A DNA stretch of 64,000 nucleotides from Candidatus Microgenomatus sp. (GTDB taxonomy: Bacteria > Patescibacteriota > Minisyncoccia > UBA6257 > GWB1-50-10): NCBI GenBank assembly GCA_020724805.1, contig DYGI01000001.1, forward strand, positions 389,152 through 453,151, written 5' to 3'. The position numbers and the translations under genes were made by a program. Positions 3,763-62,970 of the stretch are shown here, in pieces (within the stretch, counting starts at the first letter, position 1; the number at the start of each line of letters is the position of its first letter). The notes beneath the pieces were generated by a model. That model was not told the origin of the DNA. It worked only from the letters and a program-made list of their open reading frames with translations, and ran no database searches.

Positions 3763-4071
3763 CTAAAGCGCGAGTATGAGGAGCACCGCGAGCGTGATAA
3801 TGAGGAGGAAGCTCACCGTATAAACCGCAAGCGTCACCGCATCGGAACGTTTCCCTTCCATGTACCACGCGACCGGGCGGCCAAAGACCGCAAGTGCGAG
3901 AATCGCGGCCGAAGAAGAGAAGAGGAGCAAGAAGCCCATAGGCGCCACGATATCTCCCGCTTTGCCGGCGAACTGTTCCGCGCCGCTCATAATAGCGGCG
4001 ACAAGCGCCACATAACAGGATGCGATGGCGGCATTCCCGAGCGCGTAGAGCGCTATCTTGTTTTTATTCAT
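3763..4071 (-). CDS. small membrane protein (hypothetical)
   Basis: Three hydrophobic helices. Start at the internal Met (MNKNK); a TATGATATAAT-like -10 lies upstream on the minus strand. Confidence 0.45.
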   Translation of the reverse strand: MNKNKIALYALGNAAIASCYVALVAAIMSGAEQFAGKAGDIVAPMGFLLLFSSSAAILALAVFGRPVAWYMEGKRSDAVTLAVYTVSFLLIITLAVLLILAL

Positions 4072-9455: not shown

Positions 9456-10451
9456 GTGAAACTCTCAATCGGTATTGTGGGACTTCCGAACGTGGGGAAA
9501 TCCACGCTCTTCAAGTTGCTCACCAAGCAGAACATCCATATCGCAAACTATCCTTTTGCGACCATCGACCCGAATGTCGGCGTAGTGCCGGTGCCGGACG
9601 AACGCGTGGAGAAGCTTACCGAGCTTTCCAAGTCGAAAAAGAAAATACCCGCGGTCGTGGAGTTCTACGACATCGCGGGGCTCGTGAAAGGAGCAAATAA
9701 AGGCGAAGGCCTCGGGAATCAGTTCCTTGCGAATATCCGCGAGTGTAAGGCGATTGTGCAGGTAGTGAGGTGTTTTCCCGATCCCACCGTCATCCATGTG
9801 GATTCTTCGGTGGACCCCATCCGCGATATTGAAACGATAAAGATGGAGCTCGCGCTTAAAGATGTGGAGACGGTGGATAAACGGCTCCATTCGATTGAGG
9901 CGGAAGTTCGTGGCGGGACGAAGGGGGCCAAAGAAAAGCAGGAAGTATTGGAAAGCGTAAAAAAAGCGCTTCTCGCAAACCAATACCTCACCGCGTACGC
10001 GCACGAGGAAGTGGTGAGGGAGTTGCAGCTTCTCACCGCAAAGAAACAAATATTTCTTTTGAACGGCGTGGAGACGGACGTGACCGAAGGAGTGAGGGAT
10101 TATATCCGCACACTCGGTGCCGACTTTGTGGTGATGGATCTTTCGGAGGAGCCGTCCGTAGCACCTCTCATCAAGAAATCATATGAAGTACTCGATCTCA
10201 TCAGTTTCCTGACGACGGGTGAGGATGAAACACGCGCATGGACCATTGAGAAGGGATGGAAAGCACCGCAGGCCGCGGGCACCATTCACACCGACTTTGA
10301 GAAAAATTTCATCCGCGCCGAAGTGGTGGCGTATAACGAACTTATGGCGAATAGCGGATGGCAAATGGCAAGGCAAAAGGGGAAGGTGCGACTTGAGGGG
10401 AAGGATTATGTCATGCAGGACGGTGACGTGGTGGTAATTCGCCACGGGTGA
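9456..10451 (+). CDS. ychF: ribosome-binding ATPase YchF (Obg-family GTPase)
   Basis: G1 GLPNVGKST, PFATIDPN, C-terminal TGS domain; GTG start. Confidence 0.9.
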   Translation: MKLSIGIVGLPNVGKSTLFKLLTKQNIHIANYPFATIDPNVGVVPVPDERVEKLTELSKSKKKIPAVVEFYDIAGLVKGANKGEGLGNQFLANIRECKAIVQVVRCFPDPTVIHVDSSVDPIRDIETIKMELALKDVETVDKRLHSIEAEVRGGTKGAKEKQEVLESVKKALLANQYLTAYAHEEVVRELQLLTAKKQIFLLNGVETDVTEGVRDYIRTLGADFVVMDLSEEPSVAPLIKKSYEVLDLISFLTTGEDETRAWTIEKGWKAPQAAGTIHTDFEKNFIRAEVVAYNELMANSGWQMARQKGKVRLEGKDYVMQDGDVVVIRHG

Positions 10452-18317: not shown

Positions 18318-18378
18318 AAGTGTAGTTCTGTCAATATACCCAAATTCCGCCAAAAATGGGGTATAATGGGCATGGACT

Positions 18379-25571: not shown

Positions 25572-28067
25572 TTATGCACCATGACAACGCTTGAATTTCT
25601 TTCCGCTCCCGCACCAACAGGGGTCATTGCGACCCAAATTCTTCGCTTCGGGTGGTGCCATTTTTTTCTCCGCTTCCACTTTTACTTTTTCCAAATCCAC
25701 CTCGAGTATTTGGAAAATGCTCCCCGCAACCATCGTCTCGAATTGGCTCTCAAGTCGCTTAAAAAGTATGTGCGCTTCACGACGGTATTCCACCAGTGGC
25801 TCGTGCTGGGCGTATGCGCGGATATTCACCGTTTCGCGAAGCCCCTCAAGGTTTTCCAGGTGGTCCACCCAAAGCATATCCAAAAGGCGCACCAAGTGTT
25901 GGGCGGCGAATTCCACCCGGTCGGCATCTAAAACCTCGGGAAGTTTCGAGATTCGTTCTTCGAGCGCCGCGAACGATTTTTCCGCCTCCGTATGGTCGTG
26001 CCCGTCCTCTGCGGGATGTGCCGCGAGCGCCTTCCTCCCCTCCCCTACGAACTTTTCAAGCAACTCTTTCACAGCTTCGATAAGTTCCGCGCCGTTCGCT
26101 TTCAGGAATTTCTCGCGCTTCGCATAGAGCGCGGAACGCTGCTTGTTCAGCACGTCGTCGAAATCAAGCAAGTGTTTGCGAATATCAAAGTTCATCCCTT
26201 CCACTTTTTCCTGCGCTTGGTTCACTGCTTTCGTTACGAGCCCCGATTCTATCGGCATATCGTCCGGTACATCCAACGTCTCCATCATTTTTTTGATGCG
26301 TTCGCCGCCGAAAATACGAAGAAGGTCGTCCTCAAGCGAGAGGAAAAATTGTGTTGACCCCGGGTCTCCCTGACGGCCGGAGCGTCCACGAAGCTGGTTG
26401 TCGATGCGCCGGGCTTCGTGCCGTTCGGTACCGATAACGCAGAGGCCTCCCAACGCCCTCACCTCCTCGGCGTCCGCTGCAACCGGAGGATTACCGCCCA
26501 ACACAATGTCCACGCCGCGCCCTGCCATGTTCGTTGCAACCGTCACCGCTCCTTTCCGCCCCGCCTGTGCGATAATCGCACCTTCGCGTTCATTGTTCTT
26601 TGCATTCAGCACTTCGTGAATGATGCCTGCTTTCGCAAGGCGCGCCGCGATTTCTTCGTTCTGTGCAATGGAAGTGGTACCGAGAAGCACCGGCTGCCCT
26701 TTTTCCTGGCGCGCCTTCACCTCGGCCACTACCGCGTCGTACTTTGCATCCTTTGTTTTATAGATGATGTCCGACACATCTTTCCGGGCAAGCGGGCGGT
26801 TTGGCGGCACAGGGACCACATCAAGGTTGTACACCTTATGGAATTCTTCCGCGGACGTTGCCGCGGTACCCGTCATACCCGCGATCTTCTGATAAAGGCG
26901 GAAATAGTTTTGGATGGTCACTTGCGCGTAGGTGCGGTTCTCTTCGCGAACCCTGACCCCTTCTTTCGCCTCAATGGCTTGGTGGAGTCCGCCCGAATAA
27001 CGCCGACCGTGGAGAATGCGCCCGGTGAACTGGTCTACAATGAGTACCTCTTCGTCTTTTACCATGTAGTCACGGTCCCGCGTGAAGAGCGCTTTTGCTT
27101 TGAGCGATTCCTGAAGATAGTGAACCAGCCGTCCGTGCTCGGGGGCATAGAGATTCGGTATTTTCAAAAGTTTTTCCACCTTTTCTATCCCTTCATTCGT
27201 AATATTCACCGTCCGCTGTTTTTCATCGGTCACATAATCGGTTTCGGGTACCAGGTCCGCGACCACGCGTGCAAATACCTTATAAAATTCGCTCGATTGT
27301 ACATCGGGCGCCGCAATAATGAGCGGAGTACGTGCTTCGTCTATCAAAATAGAGTCCACTTCGTCGATGATGGCGTAATGGTGACCGCGCTGTACACGGT
27401 CGGTGAGGCGGAGCGCAAGATTGTCGCGGAGAAAATCGAACCCAAACTCATGATTCGTACCGTAGGTAATGTCGGCCGCGTACGCCTCCTTCCGCGAGAT
27501 TGGCCGCAAAAATTCCTCGAATACCTTGAAGCTTCCGAGCGTGTCCCGTTCTTTATCGATATCCCCTTTCTCGGCGGTGTACGAAGGGTCGTACCGATAC
27601 GCGGCGTCGTGGGAAATGCACGCGACACTGACCCCGAGCGCGTCGTAGATCTGTCCCATCCATACCGTATCACGTTTTGCAAGGTAATCGTTCACCGTGA
27701 CCACATGCACCCCTTTTCCGGTAAGCGCGTTCAGGTAGGCGGGCGCTGTGGCGGCCAAGGTCTTCCCTTCTCCGGTCATCATCTCGGCTATCTTCCCTTC
27801 GTGAAGCGCCAGGCCTCCCATAAGTTGGACATCGTAGTGGCGCTGCTTCAAGGTTCGCTTCGCCGCTTCACGGGCAAGCGCGAACGCGCGCGGAACGACC
27901 GTGCCGGTCTCTCCTTTAAGAATCCTTTCCCTAAGTGCCGCGGAATCCTTTTTCAGCTCATCGTCAGAAAGCGAAGAAACCGCCGATTCCTCGGCGTTTA
28001 TCTGTTCTACCGCACGGCGAAGCCGGCCGTAGATACGGTTTTCGAATAGTTGGGTGAAAAATGACAC
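25572..28067 (-). CDS. secA: preprotein translocase ATPase SecA
   Basis: DEAD motor motifs (MMTGEGKTL, DEVDS), C-terminal Zn finger CWCGSGKKFKRCHG. Confidence 0.95.
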   Translation of the reverse strand: MSFFTQLFENRIYGRLRRAVEQINAEESAVSSLSDDELKKDSAALRERILKGETGTVVPRAFALAREAAKRTLKQRHYDVQLMGGLALHEGKIAEMMTGEGKTLAATAPAYLNALTGKGVHVVTVNDYLAKRDTVWMGQIYDALGVSVACISHDAAYRYDPSYTAEKGDIDKERDTLGSFKVFEEFLRPISRKEAYAADITYGTNHEFGFDFLRDNLALRLTDRVQRGHHYAIIDEVDSILIDEARTPLIIAAPDVQSSEFYKVFARVVADLVPETDYVTDEKQRTVNITNEGIEKVEKLLKIPNLYAPEHGRLVHYLQESLKAKALFTRDRDYMVKDEEVLIVDQFTGRILHGRRYSGGLHQAIEAKEGVRVREENRTYAQVTIQNYFRLYQKIAGMTGTAATSAEEFHKVYNLDVVPVPPNRPLARKDVSDIIYKTKDAKYDAVVAEVKARQEKGQPVLLGTTSIAQNEEIAARLAKAGIIHEVLNAKNNEREGAIIAQAGRKGAVTVATNMAGRGVDIVLGGNPPVAADAEEVRALGGLCVIGTERHEARRIDNQLRGRSGRQGDPGSTQFFLSLEDDLLRIFGGERIKKMMETLDVPDDMPIESGLVTKAVNQAQEKVEGMNFDIRKHLLDFDDVLNKQRSALYAKREKFLKANGAELIEAVKELLEKFVGEGRKALAAHPAEDGHDHTEAEKSFAALEERISKLPEVLDADRVEFAAQHLVRLLDMLWVDHLENLEGLRETVNIRAYAQHEPLVEYRREAHILFKRLESQFETMVAGSIFQILEVDLEKVKVEAEKKMAPPEAKNLGRNDPCWCGSGKKFKRCHGA

Positions 28068-31210: not shown

Positions 31211-31239
31211 GATGGGATTGCTATAATGATATCATCCAT

Positions 31240-32263: not shown

Positions 32264-33223
32264 ATGGCCGAAATGCACCGTTATGCAAGGTTTGTCCGAG
32301 CGCTTGTAACTACGGCATTCGTGCTTATACCCCTCGCAATTTTCGCGGGCATTTTTGTTTTTCAAAATGGGCAGCTCGCAAAAGAACGCGCACTCATAGA
32401 AGCCGAACGTCTTTCAAATGTCATCGCAGCGCAACAAATGCAACAATTCACGAATATTCGCAACCTCCTTATTAGTATCGCAAGCTACGCGGAAGTGGAG
32501 AATCGCGATGCGGAAGGTTGCAACCGCACGCTCGCTCTTCTTTTGGAACACGTTAATACTCCGACCTACACCTATCACAACCTTGGCATCGCGGATTCAA
32601 ACGGTCAGGTGTTCTGCAGCGCACTTCCCGCGGAACGTTCTGTAAACACGGCTGATCGGTATTATTTTCAGCGCGCGATGCAGACGCGCAGCTTTTCCAT
32701 CGGCGAGTATCAGATTGGGCGCATTACCGGAAAAGAATCGATAAATTTTGGCTACCCCGTACTTGATGAAAAGGGTGCGGCGACGTTTGTTATCTTTGCC
32801 GCAGAAAGTCTTGATGCTATTCACGAGCGCGCGAACCGCGTGCGCGGGGAGGGATATCCTATACTCATCATCACTGACCGAAACGGCACAATTTTGGTCC
32901 ACCCCGAATACCGGGAAGCGGTTGGAACACATTTCACCGAACATGAACGCATGCACAATGCTCCTTCCGGATCATTCTCGGCTATAGGTCCGGACGGCAC
33001 CGCCTATCTTTTTGGTTTCGCCACCCCCACCGTCGCCACTCAAGGCGACCACATCCATTTCATCATCGGAATCCCCCTTGTTCGTATTTCCGCATATCTC
33101 GATGATCAAATTGCCCGCTATGCTGAGTACTTTTTCGGGGCGATAGCGCTCTTCGGTGCGCTCGGTTGGTTTGTGAGTGATCGGTTGGTGCGGCGACTCC
33201 TCGCGCATAAAACTGTCAGTTAA
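32264..33223 (+). CDS. Cache-type extracytoplasmic sensor domain membrane protein without output domain
   Basis: N- and C-terminal TM helices flank a periplasmic domain of about 280 aa with a double PAS/Cache-like pattern. No kinase, MCP or GGDEF follows. Confidence 0.45.
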   Translation: MAEMHRYARFVRALVTTAFVLIPLAIFAGIFVFQNGQLAKERALIEAERLSNVIAAQQMQQFTNIRNLLISIASYAEVENRDAEGCNRTLALLLEHVNTPTYTYHNLGIADSNGQVFCSALPAERSVNTADRYYFQRAMQTRSFSIGEYQIGRITGKESINFGYPVLDEKGAATFVIFAAESLDAIHERANRVRGEGYPILIITDRNGTILVHPEYREAVGTHFTEHERMHNAPSGSFSAIGPDGTAYLFGFATPTVATQGDHIHFIIGIPLVRISAYLDDQIARYAEYFFGAIALFGALGWFVSDRLVRRLLAHKTVS

Positions 33224-34946
33224 GATCTTTTTTGATCTCTTCGAGCTCTTCTTCTACCGCAGTTTCGGCGGCATCCACGTCGTGTTTGAGATGAATGAGG
33301 ATTTTTTCTTCCTCTATCGTAAGTGCGCGTTTAGTTTTCGCACTTTCAAGAAGACGAAGGTGTTTCTTCATGGAAGCGCGTAATTTTTCGAATTCTTTTT
33401 TCACATCCCGTTCCGCGTCTTTAATGTCGCGCTGCACTTTTTTCTTGAATCCAAACATATTCCGCCACGCGAACCAGCAGATGCTCGCGAGGAACACGAG
33501 GAGTGCAATAATGGAAACAATAACCGTGAGAAGATTGATGGCGTAAGAGCCAATGCGGATGATGCTCGGACTTTCCACCGCGACGGTATAACGTGCACTC
33601 GGTGCGGTTTTGGCACCACGCGCATCCACCGCGTCTGCCCACAGTTCGTATACTCCCGCCGGAATTTCTCTATCGCCCGCGACAACGTAGTTCCCTTGCG
33701 CATCACTTGTGCCGTTGTAGAAGCGCGGCGTAATGCCCTCTCTCTCCAACCATACCGTCACGGTCGCATTCGGCACTGTGCGTCCGCGCACCGTAAGAAT
33801 ACCTCCAGGCTCGAGCGTTGAAGGATATGTGGTAATAACCGGCGCGGGGAGCTGTTGAATCACCACTTCCGAGAGCGCCGCTTGGTAATTCCCGGCACGA
33901 TCGAATGCTTGTACCAAAAGCGTTTGGGTCCCTCCTACAGTCGAAGGAAGTGTGTAGGGATTGTGCTCAACCTGTTCCGAAGAAACCACCACAAAATCCT
34001 GGTCGCCTATTTTTACCTTGTAGTATTCGATGCCAGATTCAGTGTCACGCGTATTGAACAGCACCACAGGGTTCGGGTTTGTGGAATCTTCTCCTTCTGC
34101 GAGCCTTATTTCGAATCGTTCAGGTGGTGTGGTATCCACTTGAAAACGGAAATGCGCCACTGCTCCCCAACCATTCGCGTTTCGGAATTGTGCGTGCAGG
34201 TAGTATGCACCATCGGAAACATCTTCTATTTTTTTCTCCGATATTGGTGGGTCATAGAGTACAGTTGGCGTCGTAAGTGGCGAAGTGTTGTAGAGAAGAC
34301 GTACTGCTGTCACGCCGCTCGGAACCTCCCACGTAAACTGTGGAGTCTTATTTGCATACCAGCGATCAGGATTGGGATGAGTCGGCGAAACGATACGGGG
34401 TGCGAGTGGCGCACCGGGCGGCGTGGGACTTGTGACATCTCCCGCGGTCGTACCGCCGATAGTGTATCCACCAGTGCCGAGCGAGGCGAGAATGTTCGTC
34501 CCCTGCCCATCGTTTGCGAGCACGCTCCCGCTCGTGAAACGAAGGTTTGCGACGCCATTTGCTTTTGTGCGGAACACAACGGTAATTACAGTACCATTCG
34601 CCCCGGCGTATCCGGGATTCAACACCACTCCTTCGAAGCTCACAGTCCCGGCTTCATTCGAAAACGACGGCTCCTGCACCCAGAGATTTACGATGGATCC
34701 AGTCTTCGATATAGACACAACCTCAAGGAGCGAGACGGGGAAAGATACCGTTCCGGACACCGCATTCATCGCCTGATCTGATGAATCAACCGCCACTCGC
34801 ACCGAAAACGTTTGACCCGCGGTGAACCCCCCGCTCCCCGGCACAAGCGTAAGCGTCGCCGCCTCCGCGGTTGGAAGTAGAATTATGGGCGAAACGAGCG
34901 CGAGCGCAATCCCTAATCCGCGCGCGAGCGATATTTTCTTTGCCAT
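33216..34946 (-). CDS. cohesin-like domain surface protein, C-terminal TM anchor and charged tail
   Basis: Signal peptide. The segment TLTLVPGSGG...VNAVSGTVSFPVSLLEVVSI...VFRTKANG... matches a cohesin beta-sandwich pattern. Ig-like repeats follow, then a TM and KK/EE-rich tail. Confidence 0.55.
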   Translation of the reverse strand: MAKKISLARGLGIALALVSPIILLPTAEAATLTLVPGSGGFTAGQTFSVRVAVDSSDQAMNAVSGTVSFPVSLLEVVSISKTGSIVNLWVQEPSFSNEAGTVSFEGVVLNPGYAGANGTVITVVFRTKANGVANLRFTSGSVLANDGQGTNILASLGTGGYTIGGTTAGDVTSPTPPGAPLAPRIVSPTHPNPDRWYANKTPQFTWEVPSGVTAVRLLYNTSPLTTPTVLYDPPISEKKIEDVSDGAYYLHAQFRNANGWGAVAHFRFQVDTTPPERFEIRLAEGEDSTNPNPVVLFNTRDTESGIEYYKVKIGDQDFVVVSSEQVEHNPYTLPSTVGGTQTLLVQAFDRAGNYQAALSEVVIQQLPAPVITTYPSTLEPGGILTVRGRTVPNATVTVWLEREGITPRFYNGTSDAQGNYVVAGDREIPAGVYELWADAVDARGAKTAPSARYTVAVESPSIIRIGSYAINLLTVIVSIIALLVFLASICWFAWRNMFGFKKKVQRDIKDAERDVKKEFEKLRASMKKHLRLLESAKTKRALTIEEEKILIHLKHDVDAAETAVEEELEEIKKDLN

Positions 34947-35827
34947 AGAAGCGGAGTACATGCGAGTACTATCAGTATAGCGAATCCGATGAGTGCGTCG
35001 CGCCACCCGTAAGAACCGCGTTCTGGCAATATCCCCACCACGCGTTCATTTCCCGCGCCATCCACCGCGCGAAGATAGACGTAGCTCCGCCGCGCCTGAT
35101 CACGGAGCACATACGGACTCGTTGCCGACTCCCACTCATCCTCGGAGATTGCTTTCCGTACGCGCGGCGATTCGAACACGGTGAAATATGAAATTCCTGT
35201 TTCTTTGTCGTGCGCATTCCATACCAGCATCCATTTTCCGTCCTCCGTATCCGCATCGCGCACGATCTCCGGGATGAACGCCTCCGGCGGATTACGATCA
35301 GAAATGCGAACCTCCGCATGATAAGGGGCTTCGTCGCTTACCATAACGGTCATGGAGCCGTTTGTCACGGCATCCTTTGTCCCAACACCGTCATGGAGAA
35401 GAACCGTGCCACTTTGCAGCGCCAACACGCCCTCACCTTCCTGGAGGGTTTGGAATTGTATCGTGAAAAGCCTCCCGGGTGTCGCATCGACTTGATATGG
35501 ACCCAGGATGCCGCTGAAACCACCAGGCATGATGCCACTCCAAAAGAGCTTTCCCGCCTCCACCACTCGCGGGCGTTCCACCCATACGCCCATAATGGAG
35601 TCCCGCTCATAAAACGCCTTCACCGAAAATAGATTTGGTGGAAACATTAGTTCGCCTTGTATGGCGTTCACTTCCCGTCCTTCCGCGTCTAAGACTACAT
35701 CCACCATGAACGTATCACCGGTCCGCACTTCTTGTAAAGTTCCAATTACGGAAATTACCGATGCCATTGTGGAGAATGGAGTCACGAATGCCAACGCAAG
35801 AAAAAATATGAGAAGATTTTTTCGCAT
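34913..35827 (-). CDS. cohesin-like domain surface protein (paralog), C-terminal TM anchor
   Basis: Signal peptide. VNAIQGELMFPPNLFSV...TIQFQTLQEGEG parallels the upstream cohesin-like domain. C-terminal TM. Confidence 0.5.
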   Translation of the reverse strand: MRKNLLIFFLALAFVTPFSTMASVISVIGTLQEVRTGDTFMVDVVLDAEGREVNAIQGELMFPPNLFSVKAFYERDSIMGVWVERPRVVEAGKLFWSGIMPGGFSGILGPYQVDATPGRLFTIQFQTLQEGEGVLALQSGTVLLHDGVGTKDAVTNGSMTVMVSDEAPYHAEVRISDRNPPEAFIPEIVRDADTEDGKWMLVWNAHDKETGISYFTVFESPRVRKAISEDEWESATSPYVLRDQARRSYVYLRAVDGAGNERVVGILPERGSYGWRDALIGFAILIVLACTPLLWQRKYRSRAD

Positions 35828-35829
35828 GA

Positions 35830-36845
35830 TTATCCCGTCCAGTAATATGCGAGAATACTGAAGTCAATGAGATCAATTTTCCGATCGGTGTTCAGATCGA
35901 CGTGCGTCGGTGGGGCGACACGTCGGTACCAATAGGCCATGACCGAAAAATCAACAAGGTTCACCCTCCGGTCGGCGTTTATATCACCCTTCGCCGAGGC
36001 CTCCCCGGTCTTCGCGAGCACATTCTTGGTGCCCACCGTAAAACCAGCCGCCCGACTGTAGCTCGAGAGGAGTTGATTTAAAAGGGTAGCTTTTGATTTT
36101 GCACTATGGGAACCATAGTCAAGCTCGCTCGTATCGAAATAATAGAGATAGGCGCCACCGGTATCCGCTTTTGTCTTCACCACTATTTCCTCTTCGGAAC
36201 CGACGGTGATGAGAATATCCGCGGCGGGTGCGCTTTGGCCGAATATAGTGATGGTGTCCCCACGTTTTACCTCTTCCTTATCCACCGCAATGGTCGGCGC
36301 GATAAAAATACCGCTTACATTCGTGGTGGCTCCCGCAGTGATGGAAACTGGGAAGGTGTGCAAACTAGAACGGTTGCCGTTTTTGTCCTCGCTGTAGAGA
36401 GAAAAAATATAATTTCCCGATGAGAGCCCTGAAACAGAAAGTGAGAATGAGCCATCGCTTCCTGCCGCGGCACTCGATACCACCGCCGCGTCTTTAAGAA
36501 GAGTGACTGCCCTTCCCGGATACGCGCGCCCGGAAAGCGTCACGCTCGCCGCCGGAGCAATATATCCTCCTCCCCCCCCTCCTCCCCCCCCCCCCCCCCC
36601 CCTCCGCCAGGCGGAGGCGTGGGAGGCGGTGGATCGGTTTCATCGTCATCCGCATACGAAGAACATCCGGGGTCGTTCGGATAATCTATTTCCCCGTCGC
36701 TGTCGTTATCAACACTATCACTGCACTCTGTCACCAGCACAGTCACCGATACGTTCGACGTTTCGGCGCGCACCGGAAACGGTGCATAAACAAGTGAAAA
36801 CCCGAAAAGGAGAATGAGGATTGTCGCGAACGCTCCTCTCTTCAT
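35830..36845 (-). pseudogene. dockerin-containing secreted protein split by a frameshift in a poly-G/poly-C homopolymer
   Basis: 36540-36845 encodes a signal peptide, an acidic region and a Pro/Gly linker. 35830-36543 (other frame, GTG pseudo-start) encodes an Ig-like domain plus two dockerin Ca-binding repeats (GDINADRRVNLVDFSVMAYW, VDLNTDRKIDLIDFSILAYYW). The frames join only across the C tract. Confidence 0.7.
36572..36602. repeat. homopolymeric tract (8 C, then cct, then 19 C)
   Basis: Directly counted; encodes poly-Gly on the minus strand; it is the site of the frame disruption. Confidence 0.9.
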
Positions 36846-38760: not shown

Positions 38761-41700
38761 CTAGTCCGCAATGGCCTCGAACGTGTTGCTACCAGTATAA
38801 CTTCCCGGTATCTTCCCGCTCGGTACGAAAAGTCCCCAGAATACATCGTCGGTCACTGGTGTTTCCGAAGTCGGTTTGGCAAGATCTATCTCGAGCCGCG
38901 TGAGCGCGCCCGAAAGTGTGGCGCACACCGTGCAAGAAGAATAAGTGAAGGTGGAGGTCGCATATTTTTGATTGTCTGCGGTGATGGTAAATCCGCCGTT
39001 CGCCATGCTTGTACCGGAAAGATTTACGTCGATGGCGGCATTCCCCGTATTCGTCACGGTAGTAGTTTGCGTAGCCGCACCAGTGTCGGTATTGGGATTG
39101 AGAGATCCATAGCTTATCGCGCCGGTAACGTTCAGCGCATAGAGCGTGTTAAGCTCCACGCCACTCGCGGTCGACGAGGCGCCGGTGTCGCCTATCACAT
39201 CCCCCACCGTCATGTGACCTTGCCAGTTTTGAGCGCTGAAGGAACCTACGTCGGTCGGGTCTGCGAAATACTGGATTTTCGCGGAACACGTAAAGTCGCA
39301 GCTGTTCCCGGAACAGTTTGATTTTGCGCAACTCGTGGACGCTATACGATAGCAACTATTCTGGTCCGCGGTACATGACGCTCCTACGCCCGATCGGTAG
39401 ATAACCGAGGTGGCATACGCGATGTCAGCATTGCCGTCCACGTCGGTTGCGGTGCCGGTGAGATCGATAGTGGTGGAGGTATTCTCGATGAGCGTAATGG
39501 AGCTCCCGCCGTTCAGCGTAATTGCCGAAGCGGTGGGCGCCGCATTGGACGCCTCAACGACCGCGATGGAAGGATACCCACACACCGCGTCAGAACAATC
39601 ATTCGAACCGTCGGCATCTTGCTCGCGGAACACAGGAGTGAGTTGGTCGTTATCGTACGCACGGAAATAGTATGTAAGGCCGGACGTCGCATTTTCTGCT
39701 TTCAAAGGATAGTCATATTCCACGAGCGCGAGTGCGTTGTGATCCATGTTCGCGCCCGCCGCCGCATCTTTGTCGGAAAGATAAGTACCGCTCTGCGTGC
39801 TTCCCGTAAGACGCTGTGCGCCGATTGCAGTATTGTCGCTACAATTCGCACACGTTTCTCCCGCCGTCGCATAACGCCAAATCGCGCCGCTTTCAGCGGT
39901 ATCGCCCACATCGGTCCACGTAGAAGTGGCGATATCAGGATTATCGGTGGTCCACTGGAGTTTTTTTCTAGCGTCGGTCTGAGCGATGCCTGCAAGTTCG
40001 GCGAATTGGAAACGTAATCGCACAAAGTCGTCGAGCGAAACGTTGGGAGTCGCATTCTCCGCCACACCGAGCGCGTCGGACGAGTTATCGGGATCGTTCT
40101 CGGCGATGTCGCCATAAAAGCGCCAATTTCGTGACCACGGCGAATAGGGTTTTGCCACGACCCAAAATGGTCGCCCCTCGCCGACGGTGCCATTTGAAAT
40201 AGTAAGCGGTGCGAGCGCATCTTCGCCCGCCGAGCTGCATCCGGTCGTATCCCACCCGGTAAAGCCCCCACCGCCCCACGCGCCGCCGTTACAGTCCGAG
40301 TCGCTATCGCGACCGGTCGCAAAAATTTCATTCGTATTTGGATGCGGGGTAAGTTGTATTGCGAGCGCATCGTCGCCCATATTTGTGGCGATGTCGGTGA
40401 TTGCGGAAAATCCCGTTCCTTCTATCCAGGTCTGCCACGCACTCGCATCGCTCGCAGAACTCAGCGAGCCAATATAGAAAGCTTGCACGTTGGTATTGAG
40501 CGATTCCATACCTACATTCGCGTGCTGCGCCCACACCGGGTCCGATGATGCCCACTGGTTCCCGATGGTCATGGTTGGTGAAGCGCCGCCGGTCCAGATG
40601 TATGGTTGAATGCGACAGTTGGTGCCGGTTGAACAGTTATTGCCCACCGTCGTCGCGGAGTTGCCAATGATGGCGATATGGTCCTTTCCGCTCACCGGCG
40701 CCGCTTTTGCCGCCATCCAATGACCGATACTTGAGAGCGCAATCGCGGGAAGTGCGGTGCCGGTGGAATCCCAGGAGAGAGTCGAACGCGTCCAGCGCTT
40801 ATAGCGGTAGGGTGTAGTGGTTGCGGTCGTACCTTCTGACCATACGATAAGCGCATTACCGGTAGTTTCTTCCCATGCGCCATCAAAATTTTGCGTCTGA
40901 AAAGTGGAAGCGGTCGCAGTGATTGAGGTGGTTGCCGTCCATGAGGAACCGTTCCAAATACCCGCGAAGATATCGGAGTTTGCATCCGAAGTGATGACGA
41001 GTACTTCGTCCGAGCGGCTCCCTTTCAGCATCTCACCGCGCGGAATGAGGCGGACCCACCGGATGGCGCCGCTCCCGCCAGTGGACATAGTGCTCGGCGC
41101 GGAGCTTGTGGCTGGTGACCAGCTCGTGCCGTCCCATGTGCGATAGGCAAGGCGTCCCGCCGTCGTGCTCGCGAATGCGACTATTGCCTCGCCGGAAAGC
41201 TGCTCGTACGCAATATCGAACGCACCCCAGCACGAACCGAATGTAGTCGCATCACAGGTTTGTGCGGTGGTGACCGCCGCGTTATCAAATTGGAGCGCCG
41301 CATCTCCTGCAGCATCTTGCCCTCCGATTATTTTTGATATTGCAACCGCGCCGTCTGCTTTAATGACACCCGCAATGATCTCGTCCCGGGTCGGCGCATG
41401 TGCGCCTTTTACGAACCCGACCGCGGAAGCGGTTCCTACCGGTCCTAAAAGTTCACCGCCAGTGGTGTTCGAGGCGCCGGTCGCCCACAAAAGGCGCCCT
41501 TGGTTGTTGGTGGCACCATAAAATGTCCGTGCTGAAAGTGATGCGACCGCATCCGCAGCAATCTGCCATCGACGCGTTTCACGAAAATCTCCCACCCGGA
41601 GCGGTCCTAAAAGGTAGAACTGTGGACTTATCTCGGGAGCTAGATAATCGTATGAGAGAGTAACCTTCTCCCCTTCCGCAAGAGTGAGCACCCACCGGAT

Positions 41701-43698
41701 TATGCGTTCGCCGCCACGATCTACCACAACGCCTCCATGCGAAATGTGTTTTACCTGGAACGAGCTTGGCACTCGCTCTTCCACGTCTCCTGAGAACGCT
41801 TCCGTGGCACCCACGGTAATGTGCACCGGATACGGTACGGGAGGATAAATGCGCGTCGCCGATACGCGCGCGACATCGAAAGGCACCGACTCGCGGACTT
41901 CGAAAGAGTCATAGACGGTATGGGCGCCGTTCGCGGTCGTGGCAGTGAGCTTTGTTTTATAGACGCCTGTCTCTTCCACCGCGTATGAAGTCTCATAATC
42001 CGGCTTTTCCGTATAGGCTTTTATGCGGCACTCAGGATTCACCGAAATGTTTCCACCGGAGGTTGTCAGCACTCTCACCTCTCCCGCAGGCGTAGTGATG
42101 CTCAACTCGACATTCGCATCGCAGACCATGTTCCCGCCATCATCCAGAACCGCGATACCTATCAAAGAGGTTTCCCCCGGCAGATAGACGGACTTGTCAG
42201 GGTTCATTGCGAGAACTCCCCACGTGAATTCATTTTCGGTGTAATACACCACTCCATTGCGCCACACCCACACCCGGAGAGAATATTTCCCAGGCACAAA
42301 CTGGTCGGAAGGTTGGGGCACGTTCACGCGCAATCGATTGTTCGCAAGTAAAACTTGTGGACGTATGTCAGCTTCCTCGTCTCCGCGACTGAACACTTTT
42401 GCCACTACGGGATTCGCCGCCGTAGGGAGCGGCGGCGTTTCCGTTTCGGTTTCCTGCGCGTGAACGAATTTTCCGATACCAAGCCAACGCATGATACGGG
42501 TAGCAAGGGAAACTTGAGGGGGAGGCGGACGGAAAGAGGATGGAGAAATTTCGTTTTCTTGAACGGGGGTGAGCGCGTCAAGGTCCAGTTCAAAACTTGG
42601 CGCTTCATCCGCGGTGAACGAGGGAACCTCTCCTTCTCTTAGTATCACGTCGATTGCGGCGGCTGGAACCACAGGAGTTGCGCTCTCCGATGCCGACACT
42701 GGATTCTCCGTTTGGTTTGCATCGCTCGTAATGAGGGGAGGTATTTCGTAATGAACCTCGAGAAGCATTCCGTCCAAAAGCACCTTGGGAAGCATAGGAA
42801 GTGCCGCAGAGATTCCCTCGATGCCAATCTGAACGCGGGCGAGGTCCTCCCACGCGGTGAGAGGCAACGGAACGGTAAGGTGCGGGACCATTTCTTCGGA
42901 AACGTCTGCGAGTGCGAACCAATTAGTGCCGTCTAAGCTATAACTCACACGTAAAAATGCCGGTGAAGGTGGAGGAAGCGAAGCGGTAATCTCTTCGGAA
43001 AGAACACTTTCCTCAGTTGATGAAGAAACGGCATTTTCCTGGGTGATGGGCGTTGTTGTTTCTTCTGCGACGGTCGAAGTGGGAGCATCAGAGGAGATGG
43101 GTGATTCCGGTTCGACCGCGATTGGCTCAGGTTCCGCAACTGTCGGTGCCGACTCAGGTTTGGGAGAAACTTCTTCTTGCGCATACACTATGTCAAAAAT
43201 GGGAAAACGAAATGCTCCACTCGATGTGGATGAAGCAACTTCGTTCTCCGAGGTTGTCGCCTCTTCCATGAGCGGCACCTCGGAAAGTGCGGCTTCAGTG
43301 CTCCATACGAGCGTAAGCCCCACATTTGTGATGGCTCCCTCCCCTTTAAATTCCTCCGGAATGAAATTTCCACAGAATATCTGGCTTGTGGCACCGGTGA
43401 ACGTCGCGGAGACATTAGTGGTGAGTGGTACGTCCGTACCGAAGGTCTCGGGAATTCCCTGCGCGAACGAAGGATTATCCCACGTGCCAAGACATGTCGT
43501 TGCATAAAAATCGGAGATTTCCGCGCGAGTAAAGAGAGTTTGCGTGCCAAAAGTGATAAGAATTACCAACACAACACCAACGCCCGCAATAAACGGGAAC
43601 CGTCGATGGACCGGGGGTCGCAGGTTCACCACTTCATGTTTTCCACGATGAACCTCAACGACACCTCTCCGCCCCGCATTTCGCCATGAGGTGTGCAT
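38761..43698 (-). CDS. giant (1645 aa) N-anchored extracellular protein
   Basis: Single N-terminal TM, Glu/Pro/Thr-rich linker, multiple beta-rich domains, C-terminal module shared with 37751-38701. Confidence 0.6.
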   Translation of the reverse strand: MHTSWRNAGRRGVVEVHRGKHEVVNLRPPVHRRFPFIAGVGVVLVILITFGTQTLFTRAEISDFYATTCLGTWDNPSFAQGIPETFGTDVPLTTNVSATFTGATSQIFCGNFIPEEFKGEGAITNVGLTLVWSTEAALSEVPLMEEATTSENEVASSTSSGAFRFPIFDIVYAQEEVSPKPESAPTVAEPEPIAVEPESPISSDAPTSTVAEETTTPITQENAVSSSTEESVLSEEITASLPPPSPAFLRVSYSLDGTNWFALADVSEEMVPHLTVPLPLTAWEDLARVQIGIEGISAALPMLPKVLLDGMLLEVHYEIPPLITSDANQTENPVSASESATPVVPAAAIDVILREGEVPSFTADEAPSFELDLDALTPVQENEISPSSFRPPPPQVSLATRIMRWLGIGKFVHAQETETETPPLPTAANPVVAKVFSRGDEEADIRPQVLLANNRLRVNVPQPSDQFVPGKYSLRVWVWRNGVVYYTENEFTWGVLAMNPDKSVYLPGETSLIGIAVLDDGGNMVCDANVELSITTPAGEVRVLTTSGGNISVNPECRIKAYTEKPDYETSYAVEETGVYKTKLTATTANGAHTVYDSFEVRESVPFDVARVSATRIYPPVPYPVHITVGATEAFSGDVEERVPSSFQVKHISHGGVVVDRGGERIIRWVLTLAEGEKVTLSYDYLAPEISPQFYLLGPLRVGDFRETRRWQIAADAVASLSARTFYGATNNQGRLLWATGASNTTGGELLGPVGTASAVGFVKGAHAPTRDEIIAGVIKADGAVAISKIIGGQDAAGDAALQFDNAAVTTAQTCDATTFGSCWGAFDIAYEQLSGEAIVAFASTTAGRLAYRTWDGTSWSPATSSAPSTMSTGGSGAIRWVRLIPRGEMLKGSRSDEVLVITSDANSDIFAGIWNGSSWTATTSITATASTFQTQNFDGAWEETTGNALIVWSEGTTATTTPYRYKRWTRSTLSWDSTGTALPAIALSSIGHWMAAKAAPVSGKDHIAIIGNSATTVGNNCSTGTNCRIQPYIWTGGASPTMTIGNQWASSDPVWAQHANVGMESLNTNVQAFYIGSLSSASDASAWQTWIEGTGFSAITDIATNMGDDALAIQLTPHPNTNEIFATGRDSDSDCNGGAWGGGGFTGWDTTGCSSAGEDALAPLTISNGTVGEGRPFWVVAKPYSPWSRNWRFYGDIAENDPDNSSDALGVAENATPNVSLDDFVRLRFQFAELAGIAQTDARKKLQWTTDNPDIATSTWTDVGDTAESGAIWRYATAGETCANCSDNTAIGAQRLTGSTQSGTYLSDKDAAAGANMDHNALALVEYDYPLKAENATSGLTYYFRAYDNDQLTPVFREQDADGSNDCSDAVCGYPSIAVVEASNAAPTASAITLNGGSSITLIENTSTTIDLTGTATDVDGNADIAYATSVIYRSGVGASCTADQNSCYRIASTSCAKSNCSGNSCDFTCSAKIQYFADPTDVGSFSAQNWQGHMTVGDVIGDTGASSTASGVELNTLYALNVTGAISYGSLNPNTDTGAATQTTTVTNTGNAAIDVNLSGTSMANGGFTITADNQKYATSTFTYSSCTVCATLSGALTRLEIDLAKPTSETPVTDDVFWGLFVPSGKIPGSYTGSNTFEAIAD

Positions 43699-58315: not shown

Positions 58316-58378
58316 AAAAAATGCCCGCCCCGCGGGTGAGCAACTTCACCATACCACCGATGATGTATACTGTCCAAT

Positions 58379-59242: not shown

Positions 59243-59295
59243 AAGTTATACACCTCCTCGGCGGTACTCGGAGTGTTATACTGTCTCCGTAAAAT

Positions 59296-60129: not shown

Positions 60130-61035
60130 CTATAGCTGAAGATATCGCCGCGTTGCGATAACCGAGGAAACGATACCGAGCACGATGCAGAAAAGAAGCT
60201 GATAGAGGACAAGTGAAAAGAAATTCGCCTGAAAATAGTCCGAAAGCACGAGCTCCGGGATGAAACGTCCTACATAAGGCGAGAGGAAACTGATGACCGG
60301 AACAAGAATGAGAAATCCTATGATGCCTGCAATGATACCGTATATGATGCCTTCCACCACGTAAGGGCCGCGGATGAACACGTTCGAGGCGCCTACAAGC
60401 CTCATGATGCCGATCTGTTCGCGGTTCGAAAAAATAGCGAGACGAATGGTGTTGAATGTCACCGTGACCGCAAGAAATGCGAGAAATACCGTAAGCGTGA
60501 TACCTCCCTTCTTCATCGTATCAATCAACCCCACAAGGCGATCGATGACCACCTGATTCTGCGCATAGGTCACCTTTTCCACGGTATCGCCGAGGTTCTC
60601 ATTCTCAAGATACGAAGCAATGGCTTCATACTGACTCGGGTCGTTCGCTTTTATGTTGAGTGAAGCAAGCAACGGGTTCTCGTCGAGTTCCGCGAGGGTC
60701 TGCGTGATAGTCTCCTCTCCTTCGTGACGCGCTTTGAATTCCTCGAGGGCCTGCTCGCGCGAAACATATTCCACGCTTTTTACCTCTTCAAGGCCTTCGA
60801 GCGACCGCTTCATATTCAGGATGGTGTCTTCGTCCACTGTACTTTTGAAATACACGCTGATGTCTATCTTCTCCTGAATTGACCCGAGCGCGGTTTTCCC
60901 CATCACGTTGAAAAGAATAAGGCCTTCGAAAACAAGTGCCGCGAGGATCATGATGCTTATCGTGGAGAGCGAAAGCCACCCGTTCCTAAGGAACGCTTGC
61001 CAACCGTATTTCAGTATGCGCGAAAGGGTAACCAT
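60130..61035 (-). CDS. ftsX: cell-division ABC transporter permease FtsX
   Basis: Four-TM FtsX topology, follows ftsE. Confidence 0.8.
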   Translation of the reverse strand: MVTLSRILKYGWQAFLRNGWLSLSTISIMILAALVFEGLILFNVMGKTALGSIQEKIDISVYFKSTVDEDTILNMKRSLEGLEEVKSVEYVSREQALEEFKARHEGEETITQTLAELDENPLLASLNIKANDPSQYEAIASYLENENLGDTVEKVTYAQNQVVIDRLVGLIDTMKKGGITLTVFLAFLAVTVTFNTIRLAIFSNREQIGIMRLVGASNVFIRGPYVVEGIIYGIIAGIIGFLILVPVISFLSPYVGRFIPELVLSDYFQANFFSLVLYQLLFCIVLGIVSSVIATRRYLQL

Positions 61036-61038
61036 AAT

Positions 61039-61719
61039 TTATTCTAAAATGAATCTTCCGTGCTCCTCGTCCTTTATGACGGCTCCGTCATCGAGCGTAA
61101 TAACGCGCTGCCCGATAGTGTTCACCACTTCCTTGTCATGTGTTGCCAGAATGACGGTGCTGCCAAGCTCGTTAATCTTCAAAAGCAATTTTACCACCTC
61201 CCACGTGTTCATGGGGTCCAGGTTCCCGGTAGGTTCATCGGCGATTAAGACATCGGGATGATTTATCATCGCACGCGCGATAGCAACCCGCTGACGCTCC
61301 CCTCCCGAAAGCTCCGCGGGGAACCGCGAGGCCTTTTCCTTGAGCCCCACCATATCCAACACCTGCGGTACGAACTCCATAATGTCCCGCTCGGGCCTCC
61401 CCGCCACCTCGAGCGCAAACGCCACGTTCTCAAAAACCGTTTTCCCTTGGAGAAGGCGGAAATCCTGGAATATGACACCGATGTGACGGCGGAACTCTGG
61501 CAACTCCTTCGGAAGGAGCTTATTCACCTCAAAGGAGCCGAAGAATATCTGACCCTTCGTCGGCTTTTCCTCGCCAATGAGCAATTTGACGATAGTGGAC
61601 TTCCCTGCTCCCGAGCGTCCCACCACGGAGACAAATTCGCCTGGTTGTATCTTAAAGCTGACCTTGTCCAACGCATTGGACTTTCCGTACAGCTTGGTAA
61701 CGTTCTGAAAGATAATCAT
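61039..61719 (-). CDS. ftsE: cell-division ABC transporter ATP-binding protein FtsE
   Basis: Walker A GRSGAGKST, signature LSGGERQRV, Walker B LIADEPT. Confidence 0.9.
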   Translation of the reverse strand: MIIFQNVTKLYGKSNALDKVSFKIQPGEFVSVVGRSGAGKSTIVKLLIGEEKPTKGQIFFGSFEVNKLLPKELPEFRRHIGVIFQDFRLLQGKTVFENVAFALEVAGRPERDIMEFVPQVLDMVGLKEKASRFPAELSGGERQRVAIARAMINHPDVLIADEPTGNLDPMNTWEVVKLLLKINELGSTVILATHDKEVVNTIGQRVITLDDGAVIKDEEHGRFILE

Positions 61720-61778
61720 GGCACCTTACAAATCAAAACTTCCGAAGTTCGGAAGCTTACCCGACCATAATACCACAT

Positions 61779-62477
61779 TTACGTTTTTTCCTCGAGAAGG
61801 TCTAATTCTCCTTCCAGAACCTGCTCCACACGCGAGATTTTCCTGCCCGTTTTGTGGTCTTTTACCTGCTTGTAGGGATGAAGCACGTACGAACGTATTT
61901 CGTGCCCCCACTCAGGCGTCACTTTTGTGGTGAGGTTTGCAATGGATGCTTCATGCTTTTCTTCCATAAGTTTCACGAGTTTGGCTTTCAAAAGTGCGAG
62001 CGCCTTTTCGCGGTTTGCGGCCTGTGAACGCTCCGCACGCGAGGAGGACACAATGCCGGTCGGTAAATGCACGATGCGCACCGCGGTTTCCACCTTATTC
62101 ACGTTCTGGCCACCGGGGCCGCCCGCCCGCGAAAAATCAACCTTCAAATCCTTCTCCGGTATCGCAATATTCCGCGCCTCCATTTCGGGAAGTCCCGGAA
62201 GGACTTCCACTGCCGCGAATGAGGTGTGACGAAGTTTCTTTGCGTCAAAAGGCGAGATTCGTACGAGCCGGTGCACGCCGTTCTCCCCTCTCAAGCGTTC
62301 GTAAGCGCCCTCGCCGCGAATTTCGACCGCGTTGTCGTCTATGATTATCTGTTTCCAATTTTTGAGTTGTGCAAAGCGCCCGTACATCCGGAGGAGCATC
62401 TGTGCCCAATCTTTTGCGTCATCTCCGCCTGCGCCGGCCAATACTGACACGGTCGCTATATTATTGTTGACGTTCAT
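61779..62477 (-). CDS. prfB: peptide chain release factor 2 homolog lacking the N-terminal domain 1
   Basis: SPF motif (RISPFD) and GGQ motif (GGPGGQNVN) with RF2 spacing. The ORF begins about 130 aa into the RF2 fold. An in-frame stop lies 13 codons upstream and tRNA-Thr sits 5 nt away. Confidence 0.7.
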
Positions 62478-62481
62478 AATG

Positions 62482-62552
62482 AGCCAGTGAGAGGAATCGA
62501 ACCTCCGTCTTCGCTTTACGAAAGCGTTGCTCTGCCATTGAGCTACACTGGC
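62482..62552 (-). tRNA. tRNA-Thr (anticodon CGT)
   Basis: Acceptor GCCAGTG/CACTGGC, D-arm GCTC/GAGC, anticodon loop TTCGTAA, T-arm GGAGG-TTCGATT-CCTCT, discriminator T. Confidence 0.8.
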
Positions 62553-62596
62553 GCGTTCCCATCCTATCCAATCCCATTCACTTTTTCAAACAACAC

Positions 62597-62620
62597 CGCC
62601 CCGATTTGCATCGGGGCGGG
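62597..62620 (-). terminator. hairpin 3' of RNase P RNA
   Basis: ccgccccgat ttgc atcggggcgg perfect 10-bp stem. Confidence 0.5.
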
Positions 62621-62970
62621 AGAAGTATGACATAAGCCGGGTTCTGTCTACGCGACAATTCATCTGGGACCGCGATTGCTCGCGGACTCGAGCGGCACTT
62701 CCTCCGGTTTCCCTCGGGACACGGCCTTGCACTCGGGTAAGGATTTAGCCGTTTCATCTCCGCGTTTCTATCCCTATCGCGGATATGGACCTTTTGGCCT
62801 GGGATCAGGTCCTCCTTCGCCTTTCGACTCGGGACGTTTCTGCTCGCACCTCTATCCTCACGGACGACGGGTGTTACCCGCTACCTTGCTCCTCCATTGC
62901 TGAAGGGAGTGCCCGGACTTTCCTCACTCACGACTTAACGTCGGAGCGCTGTCGCTTGTCATACTTCTAC
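62620..62970 (-). ncRNA. rnpB: RNase P RNA (bacterial rnpB)
   Basis: On the minus strand the P4 strands read GAGGAAAGTCCGGGCACTCCC and ACAGAACCCGGCTTA. P1 pairs GAAGTATGACA with TGTCATACTTC at the two ends. Confidence 0.85.

Follow-up and report, generated by a model that had tools for sequence, protein, structure and literature searches.

Can the release factor 2 (RF2) of a bacterium dispense with its entire N-terminal domain? This question is raised by a prfB gene in the 64-kb stretch of DNA analyzed here (hereafter, the window), the coding sequence of which starts next to a tRNA-Thr gene. A preliminary description of this locus offered three alternatives, namely, a naturally domain-1-less RF2, a 5'-truncated pseudogene, or a specialized paralog.

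The prfB gene and its product

The short prfB gene (61779..62477, minus strand) encodes a 232 amino acid (aa) protein, with an ATG start and a TAA stop, and was delineated as an RF2 consisting of domains 2, 3 and 4 only from the ORF call combined with Pfam, NCBIfam, PDB and AlphaFold comparisons. Pfam identifies only the C-terminal half of the PCRF domain (profile positions 100-194 of 194) followed by the complete RF-1 domain, and the NCBIfam prfB model (TIGR00020) aligns over positions 114-347 of 353 with a score of 290.5 bits, compared to 186.9 bits for prfA. The curated TIGR00020 cutoff (370 bits) is not reached because the first 113 profile positions are absent; the full-length relative P0273 scores 371 bits with the same model. 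In a sequence search of the PDB, the top 21 matches are all RF2, and the RF2 chains align to the ORF from about chain residue 111-131 with an E-value of 1e-54, a similarity far beyond chance. Residue 11 of the query corresponds to residue 131 of E. coli RF2 in the alignment with 1gqe, so that Met1 is equivalent to approximately residue 121, somewhat upstream of the originally estimated position of about 130. The AlphaFold2 model (pLDDT 85.3) has strand beta1 starting from residue 4, and its best fold match is the free RF2 of T. thermophilus (2ihr), with TM-scores of 0.80 and 0.54 when normalized by query and by target, respectively; as judged from this model, the match spans domains 2-4 and nothing more. 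Domain 1, the N-terminal helical domain that interacts with RF3 and uL11, is absent, given that both the profile and the structure alignments begin at about position 111-121. Neither a second release factor gene nor a separately encoded domain 1 was detected in the 64-kb window using phmmer and tblastn. The protein is a member of the RF2 lineage, and the alignment to RF2 structures, which the preliminary description had suggested as a check, confirms the missing domain.

The catalytic and decoding motifs are all intact. The SPF codons (residues 75-77; 62247..62255, minus strand), which correspond to the RF2 'anticodon' for UGA/UAA, and the GGQ codons (residues 122-124; 62106..62114, minus strand), which encode the peptidyl-tRNA hydrolysis motif, were read directly from the sequence; the two motifs are 47 residues apart, compared to 45 in E. 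coli RF2, so that the claim of RF2-like spacing holds. S75 and P76 are invariant among 18 aligned homologs, and GGQ does not vary among the 83 short release factors (RF2 and RF1) compared, in which there are 45 invariant columns altogether. The GGxE motif, at the tip of helix alpha5, has Asp in place of Glu, which was considered as a possible indication of altered U1 reading; this was rejected, given that Asp occupies this position in 83 of the 146 RF2 representatives. The region around residues 50-67 (62278-62330 in the window) lacks about 10 residues of the domain-2 beta-hairpin found in E. coli and T. thermophilus RF2, a deletion that is common to the full-length relatives P0273 and P0274 from Patescibacteria. 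Several RF2s of about 290 aa (L029, L035, L046 and L026) contain RQTSF after SPF instead of the usual RHTSF, a replacement of His by Gln.

Conservation and selection

The short form of RF2 is widespread. The best 120 database clusters for the 232-aa protein are 227-278 aa long, share 71-100% identity with it and come from metagenome-assembled genomes (MAGs) of Jorgensenbacteria, Brennerbacteria, Paceibacterota and Minisyncoccia; homologs in related genomes thus show the same N-terminal truncation. The short orthologs number in the hundreds in Patescibacteria (Jorgensenbacteria/Brennerbacteria-like Paceibacteria). The scan of metagenomes for close relatives was dominated by the generic pattern GQNVNKVE and yielded about 5 close loci, and in a search against 50%-identity representatives, the short proteins are subsumed under full-length representatives with 59-61% identity. 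The 18 aligned homologs also have the N-terminus, MNxNPNI, in common, with the start Met and N4 invariant. A few gene calls are longer, and their N-terminal extensions resemble translated tRNA, as if the upstream tRNA genes had been called into the ORF. In codon alignments, dN/dS between this gene and its closest relatives is 0.04-0.08. The short prfB is an intact gene that is subject to strong purifying selection.

Reduction of RF2 in Patescibacteria

Comparison of 80 loci from GTDB species genomes and further contigs places this protein within a reduction series. At three loci (L004, L005 and L021), prfB is full-length and contains the CTT TGA C site of programmed +1 frameshifting in the appropriate frame. 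In most Paceibacteria, RF2 is about 286-311 aa long, with domain 1 reduced to the 'PDFW' helix pair; a few RF2s, of 240-251 aa, retain the PLTGKYD linker alone; and in the group that includes the window, RF2 is 228-232 aa long and beta1 is preceded by nothing. The RF2 encoded in the window is the most reduced form in this series. It also lacks the site of the +1 frameshift (CUU UGA C, around codon 26), the whole region being absent; across the prfB family, this site is common but not universal. Two derived traits of the short RF2, a domain-2 hairpin of reduced length and the PEWG motif, are also present in its closest full-length relatives, P0273 and P0274 (59-61% identity), which implies that the loss of domain 1 is secondary rather than ancestral. 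The existence of frameshift-bearing full-length relatives and of half-reduced intermediates leads to the same conclusion.

The partner RF1 and stop codon usage

The reduction is not limited to RF2. Eight of the GTDB loci are short RF1 genes (L061, L064, L066, L067, L071, L077, L078 and L080, with the match near position 4001 in most), the products of which are 239-248 aa long and contain the motifs AGTGGDEA and RVQRVPxTE. Taken together with P0121-P0272, these RF1s are 239-249 aa long, lack domain 1 and have a PxT motif. A database search started from one short RF1 retrieved, among the best 120 clusters, proteins of 235-291 aa. The short RF1s match the NCBIfam prfA model from about profile position 102, with scores of 366-370 bits, compared to the cutoff of 400. 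Short RF2 and short RF1 are encoded on one contig in two cases, namely, a 193,509-bp contig (P0042 and P0219) and a 278,717-bp contig (P0067 and P0164), and in one NCBI genome, the two share the locus-tag prefix COU12. The RF1 of the window's own genome was not among the best 120 matches for either of two short-RF1 queries. Thus, the minimization of RF2 is part of a clade-wide minimization of both class I release factors.

In the window, TAA, TGA and TAG all serve as stop codons, terminating 32, 21 and 15, respectively, of the 68 crudely called genes, so that both RF1 and RF2 activities are required. Given that TGA stops are used and that long conserved genes, for example, secA, are intact under code 11, UGA is not reassigned.

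Genomic neighborhood

The tRNA-Thr(CGU) gene (62482..62552, minus strand) was identified by ARAGORN, scores 67.7 bits with the Rfam tRNA model and adopts a cloverleaf in the centroid fold. Further upstream is the gene for the RNase P RNA of bacterial type A (rnpB; 62618..62967, minus strand; Rfam RF00010, 120 bits; threshold, 100); thus, the tRNA-Thr directly upstream of the ORF and rnpB just beyond it are as originally described. The 3' end of rnpB is marked by a terminator-like GC-rich hairpin followed by the U-rich tail UGUUGUUUG (62596..62619, minus strand). The spacer from the tRNA discriminator base to the AUG, defined by the sequence and by the acceptor-stem pairing, is 5'-CAUU-3' (62478..62481, minus strand), a gap of 4 nt and not 5 nt as first described; it has no space for a Shine-Dalgarno (SD) site, and CCA is not encoded. 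When the prfB frame is followed upstream, it crosses the tRNA gene, and the nearest in-frame stop is 36 codons away, in contrast to the 13 codons given previously; there is no ATG, GTG or TTG between this stop and the prfB ATG.

A consensus scan identified a candidate sigma-70-like promoter between rnpB and the tRNA (TTGAAA, 17 nt, TAGGAT; 62561..62589, minus strand), in a search that found 2 sites with 2.7 expected, that is, a count at chance level. The -10 hexamer of this candidate ends 8 nt upstream of the tRNA 5' end, and the hexamer, together with the bases down to the tRNA, is conserved in the closest relative, L167.

Downstream of prfB, the 59-nt gap before ftsE contains a 10-bp hairpin followed by the U-rich tail UGAUUUGUAA (61736..61758, minus strand), which may serve as an attenuator or may, as a partial terminator or by being processed, uncouple ftsEX from prfB. 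The next genes are ftsE, encoding an ABC ATPase (61039..61719, minus strand), with an SD-like AAGGTG upstream, and ftsX (60130..61035, minus strand), for which the Pfam domains FtsX_ECD and FtsX were identified on the identical locus L081. The order prfB-ftsE-ftsX is kept in L083, L085, L167, L168 and L169, and the order rnpB–tRNA-Thr–prfB is also found in L167 and L001.

Elsewhere in the window, several other genes were noted. In other bacteria, secA frequently adjoins prfB; here, secA (25572-28067, minus strand) is located 34 kb from prfB. A ychF gene is present as well (9456-10451, plus strand); YchF has been linked to the translation of leaderless mRNA (PMC8138138). Finally, a 1645-aa ORF (38761-43698, minus strand) shows no Pfam match, and ORFs near it (33216-35006 and 35830-36543) contain Ig-like or dockerin domains, so that this region may be a surface-protein cluster.

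Alternative explanations for the short ORF

Two of the alternatives deny that the ORF is a complete gene. According to one of these, prfB had its first third replaced by the tRNA/rnpB region, leaving a 5'-truncated pseudogene; indeed, neither domain 1 nor the frameshift cassette is present, and RNA genes fill the upstream DNA. However, the frame is intact and its ATG conserved, the dN/dS values are low, at least 120 clusters have similar lengths and high identity, the 45 columns invariant across short RF2 and RF1 include GGQ, with SPF invariant in the RF2 set, and the confidently predicted fold starts right at strand beta1. With conservation, selection and intact motifs all against it, a pseudogene is exceedingly improbable. 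The other explanation, against which the preliminary description cautioned, is that an assembly chimera at the tRNA junction conceals the true 5' part of prfB; assemblies often break at tRNA genes. Yet the identical tRNA|ATG junction is found in a 570,864-bp contig and in a 13,418-bp contig assembled independently from different metagenomes (loci L081 and L082), analogous junctions with different tRNA sequences are present in L167, L001 and L085, and there is no domain-1 coding sequence within the window, so that a misassembly is hardly conceivable.

The third alternative, a specialized paralog with a rescue or quality-control function, comparable to PrfH or ArfB, that would coexist with a full-length RF2 encoded elsewhere in the genome, is of a different kind. 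Of the 570-kb contig, the survey covered the 64-kb window and about 8 kb more, and natural domain-1-less paralogs of release factors are known, for example, PrfH (PMC1586002). Nevertheless, the protein retains SPF as well as the residues with which RF2 decodes, and prfB is its best-scoring model, with scores below the cutoffs for PrfH and ArfB; it has no RtcB neighbor and belongs to the conserved prfB-ftsE-ftsX context; and in relatives, a short RF1 is encoded on the same contig as the short RF2. Furthermore, in sister lineages, graded intermediates replace the full-length form instead of being added to it, and genomes of about 0.6 Mb would be expected to seldom retain duplicate translation factors. 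Taken together, these observations make a paralog improbable and favor the first of the three original alternatives, a naturally domain-1-less RF2, for which the equal shortness of the 120 best clusters, the conserved N-terminus and the purifying selection also argue.

The tRNA junction and expression of prfB

The apposition of tRNA-Thr(CGU) and the prfB start suggests a route of expression. Transcription would initiate at the candidate promoter directly upstream of the tRNA to produce a tRNA–prfB(–ftsEX) precursor, from which the tRNA would be excised by RNase P acting at the 5' end and an RNase Z-type enzyme cleaving behind the discriminator. The resulting mRNA, with a 4-nt leader, which is not strictly leaderless, would then be translated like the many other putative leaderless or short-leader mRNAs of this genome. 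As far as can be judged from the sequence, the odds are roughly even between excision of the tRNA yielding a nearly leaderless prfB mRNA, on the one hand, and translation of the unprocessed RNA or use of an unrecognized start site, on the other hand.

The existence of many leaderless or very short-leader mRNAs is suggested by the upstream regions of the 68 genes in the window: 16 have an SD-like site, and 12 carry a -10-like (TATAAT-like) box 5-13 nt before the start, compared to 1.4 expected; examples of such boxes are at 18357-18378, 31218-31239, 58357-58378 and 59274-59295.

The distance from the tRNA discriminator to the RF2 start is 1-12 nt at 14 loci with 43-100% protein identity; in the relatives, with 43-89% identity to the RF2 in the window, the gaps are 1, 1, 2, 3, 4, 4, 4, 4, 5, 8, 9, 11 and 12 nt. 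The association is specific to this tRNA: an ORF of at least 100 aa abuts 18 of the 42 tRNA-Thr(CGU) genes, whereas the corresponding numbers are 4 of 63 for other tRNAs and 10% for random positions. Because the value for the other tRNAs is at or below the random level, tRNA-abutting starts were rejected as a general habit of these genomes. The abutment is not universal among the close relatives either: L168 has an inserted ORF, and L169, L083 and L088 have no tRNA adjacent to prfB. In six relatives, tRNA-Thr(CGU) is followed, after 0-3 nt, by an unrelated ORF of 122-283 aa, with prfB located further downstream (tRNA genes at L003:935-1012, L024:2996-3073, L036:2961-3035, L088:1791-1867, L091:1696-1770 and L168:2378-2454). 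The tRNA|start junction thus seems to be maintained irrespective of which gene follows the tRNA.

The possibility that the ORFs located between tRNA-Thr and prfB represent a split-off domain 1 was also considered and rejected, given that the encoded proteins are unrelated to one another. The ORF of 150-180 aa found in this position at L168 (2544-2996), where RF2 is 87% identical to that in the window, shows a weak match to the transglutaminase core and ends 4 nt upstream of the prfB ATG.

Two features of the relatives bear on how the prfB mRNA could be generated. Where no tRNA abuts the gene, -10-like boxes are found 6-9 nt before the ATG (TATACT in L083, AATAAT in L169 and GATAGT in L088), which indicates that promoter-driven leaderless starts are used for prfB elsewhere. 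At L090, a degenerate tRNA-like element consisting of an acceptor stem and a T arm only (2376-2431; 19.9 bits with the Rfam tRNA model, which is below the threshold) copies the 3' half of the neighboring tRNA-Thr and lies 12 nt upstream of the RF2 start. A stretch in L087 resembles this element and is called by no tool.

These features pull in opposite directions when the excision scheme is weighed against a different mode of expression of the same functional protein, in which an unprocessed tRNA-containing transcript would be translated or a start site inside the tRNA gene would be used. The -10-like boxes immediately before the ATG in the relatives that lack an abutting tRNA are compatible with an internal start. 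By contrast, the final 20 nt of the tRNA gene in the window contain no -10-like hexamer, and 30S binding would presumably be impeded by an acceptor stem folded at a distance of 4 nt from the AUG. The element at L090, comprising the acceptor stem and T arm, which we take to be the part recognized by tRNA-end processing enzymes, also speaks for cleavage. We regard the alternative modes of expression as somewhat less likely than not, with an appreciable probability.

The proposed excision of tRNA-Thr resembles the 'tRNA punctuation' of mitochondria, where the start codon similarly follows the tRNA 3' end by 0-5 nt and excision would create the mRNA 5' end. The window differs in that essentially one tRNA, tRNA-Thr(CGU), would be involved, in a bacterial genome. 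A bacterial parallel is the E. coli thrU-tyrU-glyT-thrT-tufB operon, in which tRNA genes, including one for tRNA-Thr, head the mRNA of a translation factor; there, however, tufB is preceded by a normal spacer with an SD site, in contrast to the 4-nt spacer in the window.

Probable function without domain 1 and comparison with known systems

The 232-aa protein is quite likely the functional RF2 of this organism in a minimal form. The short RF2 would bind the A site at UGA and UAA via SPF and the tip of helix alpha5, GGQ would swing into the peptidyl-transferase center, resulting in the release of the peptide, and the factor would then depart from the ribosome without RF3, given that it has no domain for contacting RF3 and uL11. 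With the first 120 residues gone, the frameshift-based autoregulation of RF2 synthesis would be lost as well.

Such a cycle is compatible with what has been reported for model systems. According to Mora et al. 2003, as relayed in PMC1586002, domain 1 of the E. coli release factors is dispensable for stop codon recognition and peptidyl-tRNA hydrolysis but is required for the action of RF3. RF3 itself is dispensable and missing from small genomes (Baranov et al., PMC1586002), and cryo-EM indicates that domain 1 bridges RF3 and the N-terminal domain of uL11 (PMC3677378). The loss of RF3 cannot be assumed for the entire phylum because, in a Tn-seq study of a Saccharibacterium, a normally dispensable 'ribosome release factor' scored as essential (PMC11665869).

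Compared to canonical RF2 (365 aa in E. coli; T. thermophilus structures 2ihr and 4v5e), the protein from the window possesses orthologous domains 2, 3 and 4, with about 42-47% identity over 220 residues and with SPF, GGQ, the RHTSF segment and the EWG..IRSYV switch-loop in common, but lacks domain 1 (about 120 residues), the +1 frameshift site and the roughly 10 residues of the domain-2 hairpin. Its architecture matches that of the engineered, N-terminally truncated E. coli RF1 and RF2, as far as these are described in PMC1586002 from Mora et al. 2003, and it would function as they do; however, the engineered forms are laboratory deletions with a fitness cost, whereas the deletion in Patescibacteria is natural, fixed in a clade and maintained under purifying selection.

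Among natural proteins, PrfH (RF-H; TIGR03072) is likewise a class I release factor homolog without domain 1, with a domain 2/4-like module and GGQ, but it differs in its codon-recognition motif, its location in an rtcB operon and its status as an extra paralog, whereas the protein in the window has SPF and no rtcB neighbor. Assignment of the latter to PrfH was rejected on the basis of a score of 78.2 bits (cutoff 166.65), the presence of SPF and the tRNA, rnpB and ftsEX neighbors. The ArfB/ICT1 family also includes a GGQ domain that works without domain 1, but these proteins lack domains 2 and 4 and have a basic C-terminal tail; only residues 102-136 of the protein in the window match ArfB (53.5 bits, cutoff 100), and given that domains 2 and 4 are present, this assignment was rejected, too.

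Implications

In the open-access literature, we found no description of natural domain-1-less RF1 or RF2 in CPR/Patescibacteria, PrfH being the sole natural domain-1-less case retrieved. The sequences of the short release factors are public, under the names 'peptide chain release factor-like protein' or 'PCRF domain-containing protein'. Because these proteins score under the NCBI prfA and prfB cutoffs and bear such names, automated surveys could wrongly score the respective genomes as lacking RF1 and RF2.

We give an even chance to the broader proposition that a large clade of Patescibacteria possesses 'core-only' RF1 and RF2, with no frameshift autoregulation of RF2 and with the prfB mRNA generated by 'tRNA punctuation' at a junction that is kept even beside other genes. 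If true, this would mean an RF3-independent termination cycle on reduced ribosomes. Domain 1 belongs to the textbook anatomy of RF1 and RF2, and its role in RF3-driven recycling and in the contact with uL11 has been studied through laboratory deletions alone; its natural loss in both factors, along with living half-reduced intermediates, amounts to an evolutionary experiment at hand. The finding bears on the minimal composition of the termination machinery, on the need for RF3 and on how the level of RF2 is set without the frameshift loop, and the tRNA|AUG junction suggests a mitochondrion-like route to leaderless mRNAs in bacteria.
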